A stretch of DNA of 64,000 nucleotides, from the NCBI RefSeq assembly GCF_003334385.1, contig NZ_QOWN01000001.1. One strand, given 5' to 3'. Within the stretch, counting starts at the first letter, position 1, and the number at the start of each line of letters is the position of its first letter. The notes beneath the pieces are model-generated. The model did no database searches and was not told where the DNA came from. It saw only the letters and a list, made by a program, of their open reading frames with translations. Below are positions 50,699 to 57,471 of the stretch, piece by piece. A program made the position numbers and the translations under genes. Origin of the DNA: Escherichia coli (lineage in GTDB: Bacteria > Pseudomonadota > Gammaproteobacteria > Enterobacterales > Enterobacteriaceae).

Positions 50699-52353
50699 TA
50701 AGGAATCATCCACGTTAAGACATAAGCCTGAAGCGTGGTGATCACGCCCACTATACAGGTGAAGATCAGGCTGTGTTTGACAGTAAAGCGGAACAAATCA
50801 GACTCTTTGCCCACCAGGCCTACCGCCGCACAGGCGATAGCGATAGATTGCGGGGAGATCATCTTACCGGTGACGCCACCGGTGGTATTGGCGGCAACCA
50901 GCAACAGATCAGAGACGCCAATTTGTTGTGCTGCGGTGGCTTGCAGCGCGGCGAACAGGGCGTTAGATGAGGTATCCGACCCGGTCAGGAATACCCCCAG
51001 CCAGCCGAGGAACGGCGAGAAGAAGGTGAATGCATGACCGGTGTGCGCCAGTGCCAGCGCCAGTGTTGATGACAGTCCGGAATAGTTCGAAATAAAGGCG
51101 AATGCCAGCACCATACCGATGGAGTAGATGGGCAGAGCCAGTTCTTTCAGCGTGCTGCCGAAGGTGCTGATAGCGTCAGACGGTTTCATCTTCAGCCAGA
51201 CAATCGAGAGCAGTGCAGCAAACAGAATGGCGGTGCCGGTGGCAGAGAACCAGTCAAACTTAAACACGGCGGCATAGGCTGTAGCCTCGCTGACCACTGG
51301 CGGCATACGGGCAACCAGTTTATCGAGGTACGGCACCGGAATATTGATCACCCACTCATACAGCGCGCCACCCGATGCGAACAGGGCTTTAAACGGCGGG
51401 ATACTCCACAGTGTTACGGTAGCTGTCAGGAACAGGAACGGTGTCCAGGCACGTAACACCTGACCCGCAGTGTAACTGGTGTGGGCCAGCGTCATATCAA
51501 CCTGTGACGCCCCCAAATCACCAAAACGGAATACACGCACTGGCTGCCAGCGTTTGAGGAACAGCGTCAGGCAGAGCAGTGATACCAGCGAAGAGATAAT
51601 GTCCGGCAGCTCCGGCCCAATGAAGTTAGAGCTAAGGTACTGAGCGATGGCAAACGAGCCGCCCGCAACCACGACCGCAGGCCACGTCTCTTTGATACCG
51701 CGCCAGCCGTCCATAATCGCCATGATCCAGAACAGCACGATAATGGTCATAAACGGTAGCTGCCGCCCCACCATCTGACCAATCTCAAAGCTGTCGATAC
51801 CTGTTACCTGTCCGGCAACCAGGATTGGAATGCCCATCGCACCAAATGCCACTGGCGCGGTGTTAACAATCAGGCACAGCCCGGCGGCGTACAGCGGTTT
51901 AAAACCCAGGCCGACCAGCAATGCGGCGGTAATTGCTACCGGTGCGCCAAAGCCTGCGGCTCCTTCAAGGAACGCGCCGAAACAGAAACCGACGATCAGC
52001 ATTTGCAGACGCTGGTCAGGGGTTATCGAAAGAATAGACGAGCGAATGATGTCAAACTGCCCGGTTTTCACCGAGATCTTATAGACGAACACCGCTGCAA
52101 TAATGATCCACGCGATGGGCCACAACCCGTAGAAGAAACCATAAACCACCGAGGCCAGCGCGTTAGCGACCGGCATTTTATAGAACAGCAAAGCCACGGC
52201 AAGGGCGATTGCCACCGTCCACGAGGCGGCGACGTATCCTTTCAGTTTGAGCTTAATCAGCGCAAAGAAGAAAAACAGGATGGGAAGCGATGCTATCAGA
52301 CTGGAAAGCCAGATATTCCCGGCGGGATCGTAGTTTTGTTGCCAGAGATTCAT
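50698..52353 (-). CDS. lldP: L-lactate permease
   Basis: ORF track frame 50698..52380; start at [18 protein letters not shown] (551 aa). Confidence 0.94.
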
Positions 52354-52643
52354 TGCAGGTCTCCTGGAGTCCACGCACATCGTGTAATGAGTCTGTTGCT
52401 CATCTCCTTGTCACACGTTGTGTAAAAGTGGCACTGCCAATTGTGTTGTGTAGGGATAATGACAATGAATGGTTAACTAAATGTTATGTATTGGCAACAT
52501 TGATGTGAGTTTTAATTGGGAAATTGTGAACCAGAGGTCAGATAAGCGAAGAATTGGTAGGGCCAATTCTTGTGGGGGGAGATGTCTGGTAAAGAAAAGG
52601 GCAATCCTCATCAGAGAATTGCCCTTAGGTTGTTGATCCAGAG

Positions 52644-52690
52644 CGCCTTATCTTGCCGGATGCGGCGTGAACACCTTACTCGGCCTATAG
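52644..52690. repeat. REP element downstream of yibL
   Basis: TTGCCGGATGCGGCGTGAACACCTTACTCGGCCTATAGG resembles the REP consensus. Confidence 0.6.
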
Positions 52691-52724
52691 GAATGTGCAG
52701 AATCACCCTGTAGATACTGTGTTC

Positions 52725-53087
52725 TTAAAACGCGGTCTTTGAAAACCCAGTCATCTCCTGCAGGCCCATTTCGCGGCCCAGTGCGGTCATTGGGTGCACA
52801 ACGACCAGTCCGCGAACACTTTTCTTCAGCTTGCCCATATCAGCCTGCTCTTTTTTGGTAATTGCGCGCTGGAATGGCATCTTCATCAGCTTCTGTGCTT
52901 CTTTACTCAGTTTTTGGCTATGAACTTCACGCAGGCGAGCAATTTCTGCTTCCAGCGTGGCTTTCTCTTTTTCCAGCTCGGCATATTTGTCTGCGGCTTC
53001 AACCAGCGAAAGATCGGCCTGCTGGTGGCGGATGGCGTCCAGGCGATCGCTGAGACGTTTGATTTCGTTTTTTTCGACTTCTTTCAT
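52725..53087 (-). CDS. yibL: Uncharacterised protein YibL
   Basis: 120-aa ORF, charged and helical; position and size fit K-12 yibL. Confidence 0.85.
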
Positions 53088-53371
53088 GTGATGGCTTCTG
53101 ATAAAGATAAATTTATAGCCCCTAGTATGCGCGACCAGGTGCTTTGTTCACAACTAATGACATTGTAATAGTTCTGTAACGTAATCATTAACATGCTCAA
53201 AAACTACGCAATTCGTTGATTAATTAAGAAATCTATAGAAAAAAGATAATAAACAGCAGCGGATGATTATTGAGGATTCAGCACGTTTTCCTTAATGTCA
53301 TCTTTACCGGGAACCTAAACTAAAATTGGCGGCCGCGCATTCCCGGCGCGGGGTAATACGGAGATATCATC

Positions 53372-53581
53372 ATGGGCAAATTAGGTGAAAACGTTCCGCT
53401 TCTTATCGATAAAGCCGTAGATTTCATGGCATCAAGCCAGGCGTTCCGGGAGTATCTGAAAAAACTTCCTCCCCGTAACGCGATTCCGTCCGGAATACCC
53501 GATGAAAGCGTGCCGTTATATCTACAACGTCTGGAGTATTATCGTCGGCTTTATCGGCCGAAGCAGGTAGAGGGGCAGTAA
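53372..53581 (+). CDS. yibT: Small uncharacterised protein (69 aa), probable YibT
   Basis: 69-aa [34 protein letters not shown]... between yibL and mtlR; symbol from recollection. Confidence 0.65.
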
Positions 53582-53592
53582 GCAGACGTTGC

Positions 53593-54180
53593 TTACTTTT
53601 GAAAGGCTTTTTTTAAGCTGATTTTGGAAATCAGCTCAGTCAGTGAAAGGACCATTGTTGATCGCACAGCCTGTTGATAGCGCTGAATTTGCATTGCATA
53701 CAAACTGGAGTCTGCTGGTTCAAACTGTGGCGGCGGTGGTAACGCCGCCACGCAGTGCAGTTCACCAAAGGGTCCAAGGATTTCGTCGTCGGTAAAGGCG
53801 TACTCGTTGCCGTCGTGATTTAGCTCTTCACGCAATGCCATCAGCAGTTCCGCATCTTCGTATTCCTGGCGGTTAATGACGCCCAACCCGTAAATGAGTT
53901 TTAAACGCACAGAAAGATCGCCCAGCGGACCATCGCCGTCGAGTAACGGTTCTACAGCATACTTCACCGCGTAATCGTCTTTGCGGAATACCTGAAGCAC
54001 CAGAAGATTTACCGCCTCGGTCAGGAGCTCGACGGCGGTGATCAGAAAGCTTCGCACGGTTTTGCCAGCATTCAGACGCTCAAGCACACGGTTTTCAAAG
54101 GCCTGGGTTTGTTCCATTGTTGCCTGCATATCTGACAATCTGTTATTCGGGCGCAGGGTGTCCTGCGCCTGGTCCACCAT
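53593..54180 (-). CDS. mtlR: Mannitol operon repressor
   Basis: 195-aa ORF; shares a base with mtlD stop. Confidence 0.93.
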   Translation of the reverse strand: MVDQAQDTLRPNNRLSDMQATMEQTQAFENRVLERLNAGKTVRSFLITAVELLTEAVNLLVLQVFRKDDYAVKYAVEPLLDGDGPLGDLSVRLKLIYGLGVINRQEYEDAELLMALREELNHDGNEYAFTDDEILGPFGELHCVAALPPPPQFEPADSSLYAMQIQRYQQAVRSTMVLSLTELISKISLKKAFQK

Positions 54181-55328
54181 TATTGCATTGCTTTATAAGC
54201 GGTTACCGCCTCGGATACAACCTCGCTGTTGGCATCAAGACCGGAAATCTGTGCCAGCGCCGCCTGCGGACCTTTGTCAGCGATCAGTGCTGCCAGTTCC
54301 TGAGCCTGCGGATCATCTTCACTGCGGAAGTGCATTGCAGCGGCAATACCTTCAATCAGGTTTTTATGTGGCAGACCATATTCCAGCGTACCGAGCAGTG
54401 GCTTGATCAGACGGTCGCCAGCACTCAGTTTACGCAGTGGCTGACGGCCTACGCGCTCTACATCATCTTTCAGATACGGGTTCTCAAAACGGCCGAGAAT
54501 TTTCTGGATGTACGCCGCATGCTTGTCAGCGTCAAAGCCGTAGCGCTTGATCAATACTGCACCACTTTCTTCCATCGCACCTTTTACCACCGCGCGGATT
54601 TTCTCGTCGAGAATCGCGTCACGAATGGTCTGATGACCGGCCAGTTTTCCGAGGTACGCGGTTATAGCATGACCCGTGTTCAGGGTGAAGAGTTTACGTT
54701 CGACAAATGCCATCAGGTTGTCGGTTAACTCCATGCCTGGGATGTTCGGCAGTGCGCCTTTGAACTGCGTTTTATCGACAATCCATTCGCTGAAGGTTTC
54801 TACCGTCACTTCCAGCGGATCGTTAGTTGCCGAAGCCGAAGGCGGTACGATGCGGTCAACGGCGGAATCGACAAAGCCAACGTGTTCTTCTACCCACGCT
54901 TTGGCGTCTTCCGGCAGGGCGTTCATCACATGGCCTTTCAGCTGCGTGGTACCGCGTACCATGTTTTCACAGGCGATGATGTTCAGCGGGGATTCATTAC
55001 CTTGTTCTTTACGTTTCACCAGCCCTTTGGCGATTGCCGGAGCAATACGTTCCAGCACAACCGGGCCAACGGCGGTAGTGACTAAATCAACCTGAGCAAT
55101 CAGATCAACGACATCATCACCAATGCTGCTGACAGCATTGACGCCGGAAACGGTATCTACCTGCTCGGTTTCACCAACCACATGTACCTGATAGCTATGA
55201 CGGGCATTCAGGGCATCAAGTACCACCTGATTGACATCGGCAAACGTCAGTTGGATACCCGCGTCTGCCAGCAGTTTACCGATAAAGCCACGACCGATAT
55301 TACCTGCGCCAAAATGTAATGCTTTCAT
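54180..55328 (-). CDS. mtlD: Mannitol-1-phosphate 5-dehydrogenase
   Basis: ORF track frame 54180..55646; start at [20 protein letters not shown] (382 aa). Confidence 0.96.
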
Positions 55329-55355
55329 AGTATTAACCTTCATCAATGTTTTTAC

Positions 55356-55555
55356 CCGAGAGGGCTGGGGTGAGGCTTTTCCCTCACCCAAACCCTCTCC
55401 GTGAGGAGAGGGGCAGCGCCGGATGCGGCGTAAGCGCCTTATCCGGCCTACAAGAACGTGCAAATTCAACAAATTGTGATGCATCCTGTAGGCCTGATAA
55501 GCGTAGCGCATCAGGCAATTAACCCCACCTTCTCCATGTGGAGAGGGTGGGATTG
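55356..55555. repeat. BIME/REP cluster plus GC-rich palindromic units in the mtlA-mtlD intergenic region
   Basis: Two inverted REP units (GCCGGATGCGGCGTAAGCGCCTTATCCGGCCTACA at 55418-55452; TGTAGGCCTGATAAGCGTAGCGCATCAGGCA at 55494-55516) flanked by CCCTCTCCGTGAGGAGAGGG and CCACCTTCTCCATGTGGAGAGGGTGG palindromes. Confidence 0.7.
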
Positions 55556-55557
55556 GA

Positions 55558-57471
55558 TTACTTACGACCTGCCAGCAGTTCCAGCACTTCATCCACGCTG
55601 GTGGTGTGTGCCAGACGCTCGATGACGGACTCATCATCCAGTGCATTGGTCAGGCTGGTGATAACCTGAATGTGCTCGTTGTTACGGGCAGCAATACCAA
55701 TCACCAGACGGGCAATGTCATCTTCTTCTTCACCGAAGCGCACGCCTTCCGGGTACTGGCAGAACACGACGCCCGTTTTCAGTACGCGATCTTTCGCTTC
55801 AACCGTACCGTGTGGCACCGCGATAGACTCACCCAGATAAGTCGGGGTCAGTTTTTCACGATCCAGCATCGCCTGAACGTATTCCGGCTCAACGTAACCG
55901 CCTTTCACCAGCTGCTCGCCAGCAAAACGAATCGCTTCTTCTTTGGTTGCCGCTTTGCGACCGAGGAAGATGTTCTCCGCGCCTAGCTTGAACAGGTTAG
56001 CACTGGAATCGTCAAAGCTGTCTTTCAGGCTGTCTTTTACTTTCTCTTCGTTTGCCGTGTGGCGTTGGGCAGCAACCAGACGTTCGGTCAGGCTGGTGTA
56101 CAGGCCGCTGTCGAGGAAGTTGGTCAGCGAAATATGCTGTGCCTGCGGAACCTGGCGCATAGCGCGTTCGGTCAGGTCACGGTGAGTGATGACGAGGTCC
56201 ACATCTGGCGGCAGGTTGTTGATCGCGCTGTTAGTAACAGAAATCTGCGACAGACCTGCATCCTGAATTTTCTTACGCAGAACGCCTGCGCCCATCGCAC
56301 TGGAACCCATACCGGCGTCACAGGCAACGATGATTTTACGTACGTGGCTCAGGTCGTTAGTCACATCGCCAGCAGACAGCGGAGATGCGCCTTTAGACTC
56401 AGCTTTCATGTCCTGCATACGACGAGTTGCTGCTTCAATATCATCTTCTTCTTTCACTTTGCTGGTTTTCAGCAAAATAGCAGAGACAACGAAGGAGACA
56501 GCCATCGCCGCACACACACCCGCGATGTTAGCGAAGTAAGCACCTTTTGGTGTCATCGCCAGTACAGCAAGGATAGAACCCGGAGACGCCGGAGAAACCA
56601 GACCACCGCCCAGGATAGTCAGCGTGAACACGCCAGTCATACCGCCGAGGATGACTGCGAGGATCAGACGCGGATTCATCAGCACATACGGGAAGTAGAT
56701 TTCGTGGATACCCCCCAGGAAGTGGATGATTGCCGCACCGCCCGCAGACTGTTTAGCGCTACCACGACCAAAGAACATGTACGCCAGCAGCACGCCCATA
56801 CCTGGACCTGGGTTAGCTTCAATCAGGAAGAAGATTGATTTACCCAGTTCATGGGACTGCTGAATACCCAGCGGCGAGAAGATACCGTGGTTAATGGCGT
56901 TGTTGAGGAACAGGATTTTCGCCGGTTCAACAAAGATAGACGCCAGCGGCAGCATGTCATGGACAACCATGAAGTTAACGCCCGCAGCCAGCATTTTGGA
57001 CAGGGCTTCAACAATCGGGCCAATGCCGAGGAATGCCAGAATAGCGAGGATCATCCCGATGATGCCTGCGGAGAAGTTATTCACCAGCATCTCAAAACCG
57101 GATTTGATCTTACCGTCTACCCAGCGGTCGAAGTGCTTAATGCACCAGCCGCCCAGCGGACCTGCAATCATAGAACCGAGGAACATCGGCATGTCTGCGC
57201 CGACGATAACGCCCATGGTGGTGATGGCACCGACTACGCCGCCACGTTCGCCGCCTACCAGCTTACCACCGGTATAACCGATCAGCAGCGGCAGGAGATA
57301 AGTGATCATCGGCCCGACCAGCTTCGCCAGCGTCTCGTTCGGTAACCACCCTGTTGGAATAAATAACGCGGTGATGATACCCCACGCGATAAACGCGCCG
57401 ATATTTGGCATCACCATGTTGCTGAGGAAACGACCAAAGCTTTGCACTTTGATCTTAATATCGGATGACAT
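55558..57471 (-). CDS. mtlA: PTS mannitol-specific EIICBA component
   Basis: 637-aa ORF recognised as MtlA. Confidence 0.96.

Follow-up and report, generated by a model that had tools for sequence, protein, structure and literature searches.

We analysed a stretch of 64,000 nucleotides (nt) from Escherichia coli (contig NZ_QOWN01000001.1 of RefSeq assembly GCF_003334385.1), hereafter the window, and focused on yibT, a small gene lying between yibL and mtlR. From profile comparisons we conclude that its product of 69 amino acids (aa), YibT, is homologous both to the theta subunit of DNA polymerase III (Pol III) with the phage P1 protein HOT, and to the surface composition regulator GlgS (ScoR), and that YibT is the family which bridges the two. 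As to its function, we lean towards a non-enzymatic, partner-binding adaptor of three helices, which would be made in response to stress under the control of sigma-S, Rob and PhoB, and would have its output at the envelope or cell surface. Few genes depend as strongly on Rob and sigma-S as yibT, which has been without a mechanism, and theta and HOT, its only biochemically understood relatives, clamp a partner. A single superfamily bridged by YibT turns an orphan small protein into a concrete, testable binding hypothesis. What this study adds is the homology triangle of theta/HOT, YibT and GlgS, a promoter box shared by yibT and glgS, and the mobile copies of yibT on plasmids.

Identity, conservation and homology come from our own comparisons. 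The relationship to theta and HOT emerges at the level of the family. An earlier note on this DNA, written from the letters alone, had stated that the function of the frame was not evident, and E. coli YibT taken singly bears this out. It matched no NCBIfam family, nothing below an expectation value (E) of 0.06 among the PHROGs, and nothing in a phmmer search of the PDB sequences, where HOT was found by the family profile only. Its sole Pfam match, to DNA_pol3_theta, was sub-threshold (12.8 bits, E 0.1) and collinear over 45 residues. Across the YibT family, the same Pfam model (PF06440) matched 13 of 21 members at E ≤ 1e-3 and 19 of them at E ≤ 0.1, and no other family recurred. The NCBIfam theta model matched 14 of 16 members, with E from 1e-4 to 0.1. 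The orthologues stay well outside the curated theta families (PF06440/NF008207), reaching 14-22 bits against a cut-off of 97 bits. When all PDB sequences were searched with a profile built from 17 orthologues, the best match was phage P1 HOT (1se7; E 1.5e-4). In alignment-to-alignment comparison with hhalign, the YibT family matched a theta-plus-HOT alignment over 47 ungapped columns (91.8%, E 7e-7), and HOT alone with a score of 43.9 (95.4%, E 1.9e-8), compared with a maximum of 19.9 in a null set of 300 shuffles and 389 real open reading frames (ORFs) of the window. Furthermore, a hidden Markov model (HMM) of the YibT family matched HOT at E 4.7e-8 and none of 722 background ORFs (database size set to 4,300). 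At the level of the superfamily, remote homology is statistically supported across the whole domain. The link itself exists in databases, as the InterPro theta-superfamily assignment IPR009052 is quoted for the Salmonella orthologue (PMC5437024). Our literature search found no paper that discusses a YibT-theta link, and none on yibT together with dnaQ.

The second side of the triangle is GlgS. In some public records, the YibT-like proteins of Pseudocitrobacter and Phytobacter are named "glycogen synthesis protein / surface composition regulator". The NCBIfam GlgS model (NF002793) matched the YibT-family members P0139 (6e-5) and P0414 (1e-3), its register agreeing with that of the theta model, and gave a weak collinear match to HOT (0.086). 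These two of 16 members scored 18.8-22.9 bits against a cut-off of 105 bits and thus lie outside the curated GlgS family; the Pfam GlgS model (PF08971) had no matches among 21 YibT-family members. For a direct comparison, a GlgS alignment of 25 sequences was used, 24 from a genome scan plus E. coli GlgS. With hhalign it aligned without gaps to YibT (89.7%, E 1.9e-6, score 33.6) and to theta/HOT (81.9%, E 1.1e-5, score 30.7), the maximum score of 150 column-permuted GlgS alignments being 21.5. The three pairwise registers agree, with YibT position i corresponding to theta i+2 and GlgS i-5. In HMMER, the YibT HMM matched four divergent GlgS proteins at E of about 1e-6. When the GlgS HMM was run on YibT-family, theta and HOT proteins mixed with background ORFs, its 11 best matches were YibT, HOT or theta throughout, and background ORFs came only after them. 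As with theta, remote homology at the superfamily level is statistically supported. In the common register, each of the three families has the D of V/F-D-[LF], two small residues within helix 1 and the R in [FY]-x-x-R-[LY]; theta and GlgS have R-x-W-F in common as well. In the literature searched there was no earlier report linking theta/HOT with GlgS. A single paper in it, a stress-adaptation transcriptome study, mentions both GlgS and theta, and the co-mention was taken as incidental.

Structures are available for HOT (1se7, 2ido) and for theta, or HolE (1du2, 2axd, 2xy8), and two of them (2ido and 2xy8) are solved complexes with epsilon (DnaQ). Theta stabilises epsilon, according to the replication literature. 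One possibility is that YibT is an alternative theta, binding the N-terminal exonuclease domain of epsilon as theta and HOT do. When cells are in stationary phase, starved of phosphate or chemically stressed, it would then replace theta, or compete with it, in the Pol III core and tune the stability of proofreading. HOT, the closest detectable relative, binds epsilon, and the near-invariant YibT residues V16 D17, A20, A24 F25, E27, P43, R53 L54 and R58 are common to theta and HOT. However, GlgS has the same conserved core without a known link to epsilon, so that the shared residues may simply define the fold. Moreover, the known phenotypes of yibT concern solvent tolerance and the envelope, not the mutation rate. 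Altogether we regard a role as alternative theta as unlikely. An AlphaFold model of a single-chain YibT-(GGGGS)8-epsilon186 fusion failed its internal control, with epsilon186 itself unfolded (mean pLDDT, the predicted local distance difference test, 37.5), and thus speaks neither for nor against binding.

The alternative theta has a further point in its favor, namely that yibT, like hot, rides mobile replicons. Full-length YibT paralogues of ~70-80% identity were present in 385 PLSDB plasmid records. The carriers were mostly mobilizable MOBQ plasmids of E. coli of ~5.16 kb, the others being IncX1/IncR plasmids, and the IncX1 copies were located ~2.8 kb from the replication initiator gene. The spread on small mobilizable and IncX1 plasmids suggests that replicons, and not only cells, benefit from the protein.

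A broader idea, which we consider distinctly unlikely, is that theta/HOT, YibT and GlgS form one family of stress- or mobile-element-encoded mini-proteins docking on exonuclease domains of the DEDDh type. The homology is supported by our comparisons, but a shared class of partner is speculation. Besides epsilon itself, enzymes with a paralogous fold (oligoribonuclease, RNase T and ExoX, for example) could be the partner. If true, YibT and GlgS would be nuclease modulators controlled by Rob and sigma-S, and the cell would have a stress-regulated handle on proofreading or on the turnover of nucleotide second messengers. It would also offer a mechanism for the long-unexplained pleiotropy of GlgS, for which we know of no mechanism since its first description in the early 1990s.

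The gene itself is well established. The ATG frame at 53372..53581 on the plus strand gives exactly the 69 residues that the earlier note had quoted, and the gap of 284 bp it had placed upstream is present (53088..53371, counted from the start of the divergent yibL). Its tentative naming of the frame as yibT was right, since RefSeq lists "yibT: protein YibT" beside mtlR in complete E. coli genomes. The protein is hydrophilic (grand average of hydropathy -0.53, overall isoelectric point (pI) 9.4), with a basic C-terminus (4 K/R vs 2 D/E in the final 15 residues), both as described. By megablast, the segment 53088-53600 was found in 5,413 of 5,426 complete E. coli genomes, always on the chromosome and nearly always in single copy, and 5,410 of the 5,426 carry the annotation "protein YibT" (b4554). 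The DNA is 100% identical to RefSeq genomes with annotated yibT, for example WP_000517100.1 in strain L9, and the RefSeq neighbours lldP, yibL, mtlR and mtlD are the same as in the window. In one rare, partially matching E. coli genome, a deletion associated with the insertion sequence IS1 had removed yibT together with the mtl genes. The ORF is yibT, a known, annotated and expressed gene, and as a genome-scan finding it is ordinary.

Beyond E. coli, the arrangement yibL-yibT-mtlR is retained in Salmonella enterica, Citrobacter, E. albertii, an Enterobacteriaceae isolate and a locus whose protein public records assign to Raoultella. The earlier note had proposed conservation and the ratio of non-synonymous to synonymous substitution (dN/dS) as a check, and the frame is indeed kept across relatives under purifying selection: dN/dS (Nei-Gojobori) was 0.05-0.33 in all pairs with unsaturated dS, 0.17 for a pair within E. 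coli and 0.13-0.30 for a plasmid-borne copy. This selection on the amino acids indicates a genuine gene, more than a chance ORF. Among 1.84 billion proteins the family is small: clustering at 90% left 202 sequences, and clustering at 50% identity left 53 representatives, many being fragments. Named members come from Escherichia, Salmonella, Citrobacter, Klebsiella, Raoultella, Pseudocitrobacter, Phytobacter and Kluyvera, and the named homologues among the 202 are mostly from the first three. Distant full-length homologues (~40-45% identity) occur at other loci, always as free-standing small genes, beside a universal-stress-protein gene, beside a BDM/YmgB-type gene, or near yicC-rph. The idea of a spurious ORF, or of one acting only as RNA, was rejected in view of dN/dS, protein detection and the conserved protein at loci apart from mtlR.

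Several stray records also contain members of these families. A homologue with 56% identity to YibT lies on an AT-rich contig of 27.6 kb filed as viral (L017, 258-458). Its neighbours are an IS630-like transposase and a regulator of MarR type, and a perfect CTATACTT -10 stands in front of it; no phage-like genes were seen in the 4.4 kb read around it. E. coli yibT with 100% identity appears in two "Campylobacter phage" records (MG065691.1 and MG065686.1), and glgS of E. coli or enterobacterial type in contigs of Collinsella and Bacillota metagenome-assembled genomes (L033, L038, L042, L043). The Campylobacter-phage yibT and the Collinsella/Bacillota glgS most likely reflect enterobacterial DNA in the assemblies, not a real host range. 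No GlgS was found in viral contigs.

As read from an intergenic alignment of seven taxa, the yibT promoter appears to consist of a marbox-like box, 18 nt, and a -10 element of sigma-S type, with a PhoB box added in K-12-type strains. The extended -10 (CTAAACTAAAA) is predicted to be of sigma-S type because it resembles the sigma-S consensus, about CTATACTTAA with a C at position -13. E. coli, E. albertii, Salmonella and Citrobacter all retain CTAMACT. Transcription of yibT is predicted to start near 53328-53330, giving a leader of ~43 nt that would begin with a GC hairpin; a GC stem with different loops occupies the same place in the leader of Salmonella and Citrobacter. Closer to the gene, the Shine-Dalgarno GGAG is kept in the five Escherichia/Salmonella/Citrobacter rows of the alignment, the two most distant rows being gapped or different. 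Scans of 53000-53800 for generic sigma-70 promoters and for intrinsic terminators gave no sites, and an Rfam scan of 52300-54300 gave nothing within or adjoining yibT.

The marbox-like box is a candidate site for Rob/MarA/SoxS, as would be expected in a mar/sox/rob regulon promoter of class II type. Its core, GCAC.TTTTCC..AA (53281-53295), is invariant in the seven taxa with diverging flanks, and lies 18 nt before the predicted -10, the usual distance from marbox to -10 being 18-19 nt. Against the marbox consensus AYnGCACnnWnnRYYAAAYn there are 3 mismatches at 53278-53296, and such matches occur at chance level (133 found vs 148 expected), so that the case for the box is built on its conservation and position and on the Rob dependence known from the literature. 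Upstream of E. coli glgS we found the box GCACGTTATGTTTAAAG, again followed by 18 nt and by AATACT, and this box is conserved across glgS orthologues. The merged yibT/glgS pattern GCACGTTWTNNTTAAWG (GCACGTT.T..TTAA.G) occurs once in the 64-kb window, with 0.02 expected. It was also found independently of its two source sequences, upstream of Citrobacter yibT and of the IncX1-plasmid yibT copy. A shared box fits the near-identical, ~55-fold Rob dependence of both genes: in a rob mutant, yibT was at 2% of wild type (log2 fold change (log2FC) -5.76) and glgS had a log2FC of -5.83 (PMC7537768). The yibT locus goes unmentioned in the main text of the Salmonella MarA/SoxS/Rob/RamA chromatin immunoprecipitation (ChIP) paper.

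Membership of yibT in the Pho regulon is supported by the PhoB site present upstream, reported by ChIP sequencing, and by its more than 2-fold activation by PhoB (PMC10294691). The PhoB box lies ~150 nt further upstream and is specific to the K-12-type haplotype. The other E. coli haplotype (L002 type) has an altered second half-site, and other genera lack the box.

The two E. coli haplotypes of yibL and of the yibL-yibT spacer are deeply diverged (window 52725-53371 vs L002 638-1283). The DNA of yibL is 93.7% identical and encodes the same protein, all 23 differences being synonymous, while the spacer is 88% and yibT and mtlR are 96-98% identical. Among the 5,413 genomes, identity to the L002 type was at least 95% in about 1,170, 90-95% in 657 and 80-90% in 3,582. 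Upstream of yibL, a DUF3251 gene replaces lldP in the L002 type, and E. albertii and Salmonella have the adhesin-side gene set there. Judged from the sequences, the diverged haplotype of yibL and spacer looks like an old recombination import. On the yibL side of the spacer, TAGTATGCGCG (~53124-53134) is invariant in the seven taxa. Lying 37-47 nt ahead of the yibL start on the opposite strand, it probably belongs to the -10/promoter or leader of yibL.

For expression and regulation we rely on the literature. Intact YibT was identified from K-12 colonies by native mass spectrometry (PMC9196203). In TisB persister cells it ranks, like Dps, Cfa and RaiA, among the proteins with the most new synthesis (PMC6414554), and the small proteins under sigma-S control include the Salmonella orthologue, STM14_4446 (PMC5437024). 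These reports document translation, for which the earlier note had wanted a signal. Selection for butanol tolerance had yielded a sigma-70 mutant in which yibT was down 46.7-fold, the strongest decrease among seven follow-up genes. Deletion of yibT gave more butanol tolerance and changed the fatty-acid composition, with the unsaturated fraction and the surface hydrophobicity both going up (PMC4888631). Likewise, over-expression lowered butanol tolerance and deletion raised it, as did deletion of glgS (PMC7537768). Octanoic acid induces yibT 2.8-fold, and pairing of RydC has been predicted at -24..-10 of yibT, equivalent to 53348-53362 (PMC6354806). None of these papers proposes a molecular mechanism for YibT.

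The solvent-tolerance papers have been the source of another view, in which YibT is a membrane-associated regulator of fatty-acid and phospholipid composition. Besides the higher unsaturated fraction and hydrophobicity upon deletion, this would agree with reports of YibT in outer-membrane-vesicle proteomes, as far as these are quoted in PMC9196203. The protein, however, has no hydrophobic segment, signal peptide or lipobox. The maximum Kyte-Doolittle hydropathy over 19 residues is 0.65, and as no such window lies above this value, YibT has no membrane segment. All detectable relatives are soluble, the label "membrane" goes back to text-mining links to gnsA/gnsB in STITCH, and the lipid changes may be indirect. 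We therefore hold a membrane-associated regulator to be very unlikely.

At its 3' end, yibT converges on mtlR, as the earlier note had described; the 12 bp it had given as the distance to the mtlR stop is the difference of the coordinates, and the actual spacing is 11 nt. An 8-bp hairpin (53577-53597) holds the stops of both yibT (plus strand) and mtlR (minus strand), and has a U-run on the yibT side only. It is a weak candidate for a terminator within the zone of convergent overlap. Such an arrangement could allow a role at the RNA level, in which transcription of yibT runs on into mtlR from its 3' end (an excludon) and thereby affects the mannitol repressor, with the peptide of secondary importance. 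The short spacing with a single hairpin over both stops as a weak terminator would permit this. In addition, mtlR-yibT is listed among the convergent overlaps detected by ExcludonFinder from RNA-seq coverage (PMC12288877), and a 12-nt overlap of the two ORFs is seen in Raoultella. On the other hand, the amino acids of YibT are under strong purifying selection, homologues at other loci and on plasmids retain the protein where mtlR is absent, and the protein has been detected. There could be an RNA effect besides, but this cannot be what yibT is mainly for, and we consider it extremely improbable as an explanation of the gene. Both the membrane and the RNA-only readings fit the sequence and selection data poorly.

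This leads us back to the adaptor as our preferred reading, in which both the mechanism and the partner are inferred. The gene would be monocistronic and transcribed from its own stress promoter in stationary phase or under stress. Its soluble, basic product of ~8 kDa belongs to a superfamily of enterobacterial mini-proteins of 65-85 aa, together with theta, HOT and GlgS/ScoR, all of them without catalytic residues. Theta and HOT work solely through binding and stabilising epsilon and, by analogy, YibT may bind and modulate a partner protein in a similar manner. The effect would then be a GlgS-like one on envelope and surface physiology, rather than a core replication role. We favor an envelope or surface output because of the butanol, fatty-acid and hydrophobicity phenotypes and the tight co-regulation with glgS.

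Table 1. Features of the yibT locus and related positions. Coordinates refer to the window, unless an L number denotes another locus.
Feature	Position	Strand	Remarks
yibT coding sequence	53372..53581	+	ATG start; stop TAA at 53579-53581; 69 aa, ~8.0 kDa, pI 9.4; from ORF list, RefSeq name
yibL, divergent neighbour	52725..53087	-	ribosome-associated DUF2810 protein; context
mtlR, convergent neighbour	53593..54180	-	mannitol operon repressor; context
PhoB box TGTAATAGTTCTGTAACG	53164..53181	+	sequence listed for yibT/yibL in PMC10294691; present in window
Conserved upstream box, marbox-like, candidate Rob/MarA/SoxS site	53278..53297	+	core GCACGTTTTCCTTAATG at 53281-53297
Predicted sigma-S-type extended -10 CTAAACTAAAA	53315..53325	+	hexamer TAAACT at 53316-53321, C at -13
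5'-leader hairpin CCGCGC-AUUCCCG-GCGCGG (inferred)	53333..53351	+	centroid fold, not better than shuffles
Shine-Dalgarno GGAG	53360..53363	+	8 nt before yibT ATG; read from sequence
Hairpin AGUAAGCA-GACGU-UGCUUACU then UUUU	53577..53597	+	inverted repeat I6 and fold; z-score not significant
GCACGTTWTNNTTAAWG box, window	53281-53297		
GCACGTTWTNNTTAAWG box, E. coli glgS upstream	L021 204-220		
GCACGTTWTNNTTAAWG box	L012 2410-2426		
GCACGTTWTNNTTAAWG box	L005 4924-4940		
Plasmid YibT paralogue	L004 3222-3431	-	
Plasmid YibT paralogue	L005 5001-5195	+	

Two observations concern the surroundings of the locus. In the lldP-yibL spacer, sub-threshold Rfam matches to STnc380 (52527-52635, plus strand; 36 bits vs a gathering threshold of 60, E 6.5e-5) and to naRNA4 (52645-52685, minus strand; 27 bits) are probably repetitive extragenic palindromic (REP)-type repeats. 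On the mtl side, the mechanical ORF for mtlD (54180-55646, minus strand) has 488 aa compared with the annotated 382 aa, which start at MKALHFGAG. The upstream extension is, we presume, a read-through of REP-like repeats in the mtlA-mtlD spacer.

Compared with known systems, YibT resembles YodC, YjbJ, YtfK and YiaG in being small, soluble, monocistronic, stationary-phase-induced and sigma-S-dependent (PMC5437024). No sequence relation between these proteins and YibT was detected, and the grouping is by size and regulation only.

YibT is similar in size to theta and HOT (69 vs 76-83 aa), all are confined to Enterobacterales and their mobile elements, with copies also on plasmids, and three helices are predicted at matching positions. 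YibT 15-61 is collinear and ungapped with HOT 18-64, and the two have in common the motif V-D-[LF]-x-A...A-[FY]-[KR]-E...P...[FY]-x-x-R-L-x-x-[YH]-R. On the other hand, identity of YibT with theta and HOT is about 20-25%, and YibT is without the N-terminal 10-15 residues and the C-terminal tail of theta. Furthermore, yibT sits between yibL and mtlR under stress control and is not a replication gene.

From GlgS, YibT differs by an identity of about 18-20%. GlgS is without A-F-R-E-Y, has W-F-x-x-R-Y where YibT has Y-L-x-R-L, and contains cysteines. GlgS is known for its phenotypes in motility, fimbriae, biofilm and glycogen, its effect on the first three being negative, and glgS is sigma-S-dependent. 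The depositor's title of the GlgS structure 1rrz suggests that the protein acts via protein-protein interactions. Both proteins are of 66-69 aa and restricted to Enterobacteriaceae. Their genes have in common a promoter box with its spacing, a strong dependence on Rob (log2FC -5.8 for both) and the same butanol-tolerance phenotype on deletion.
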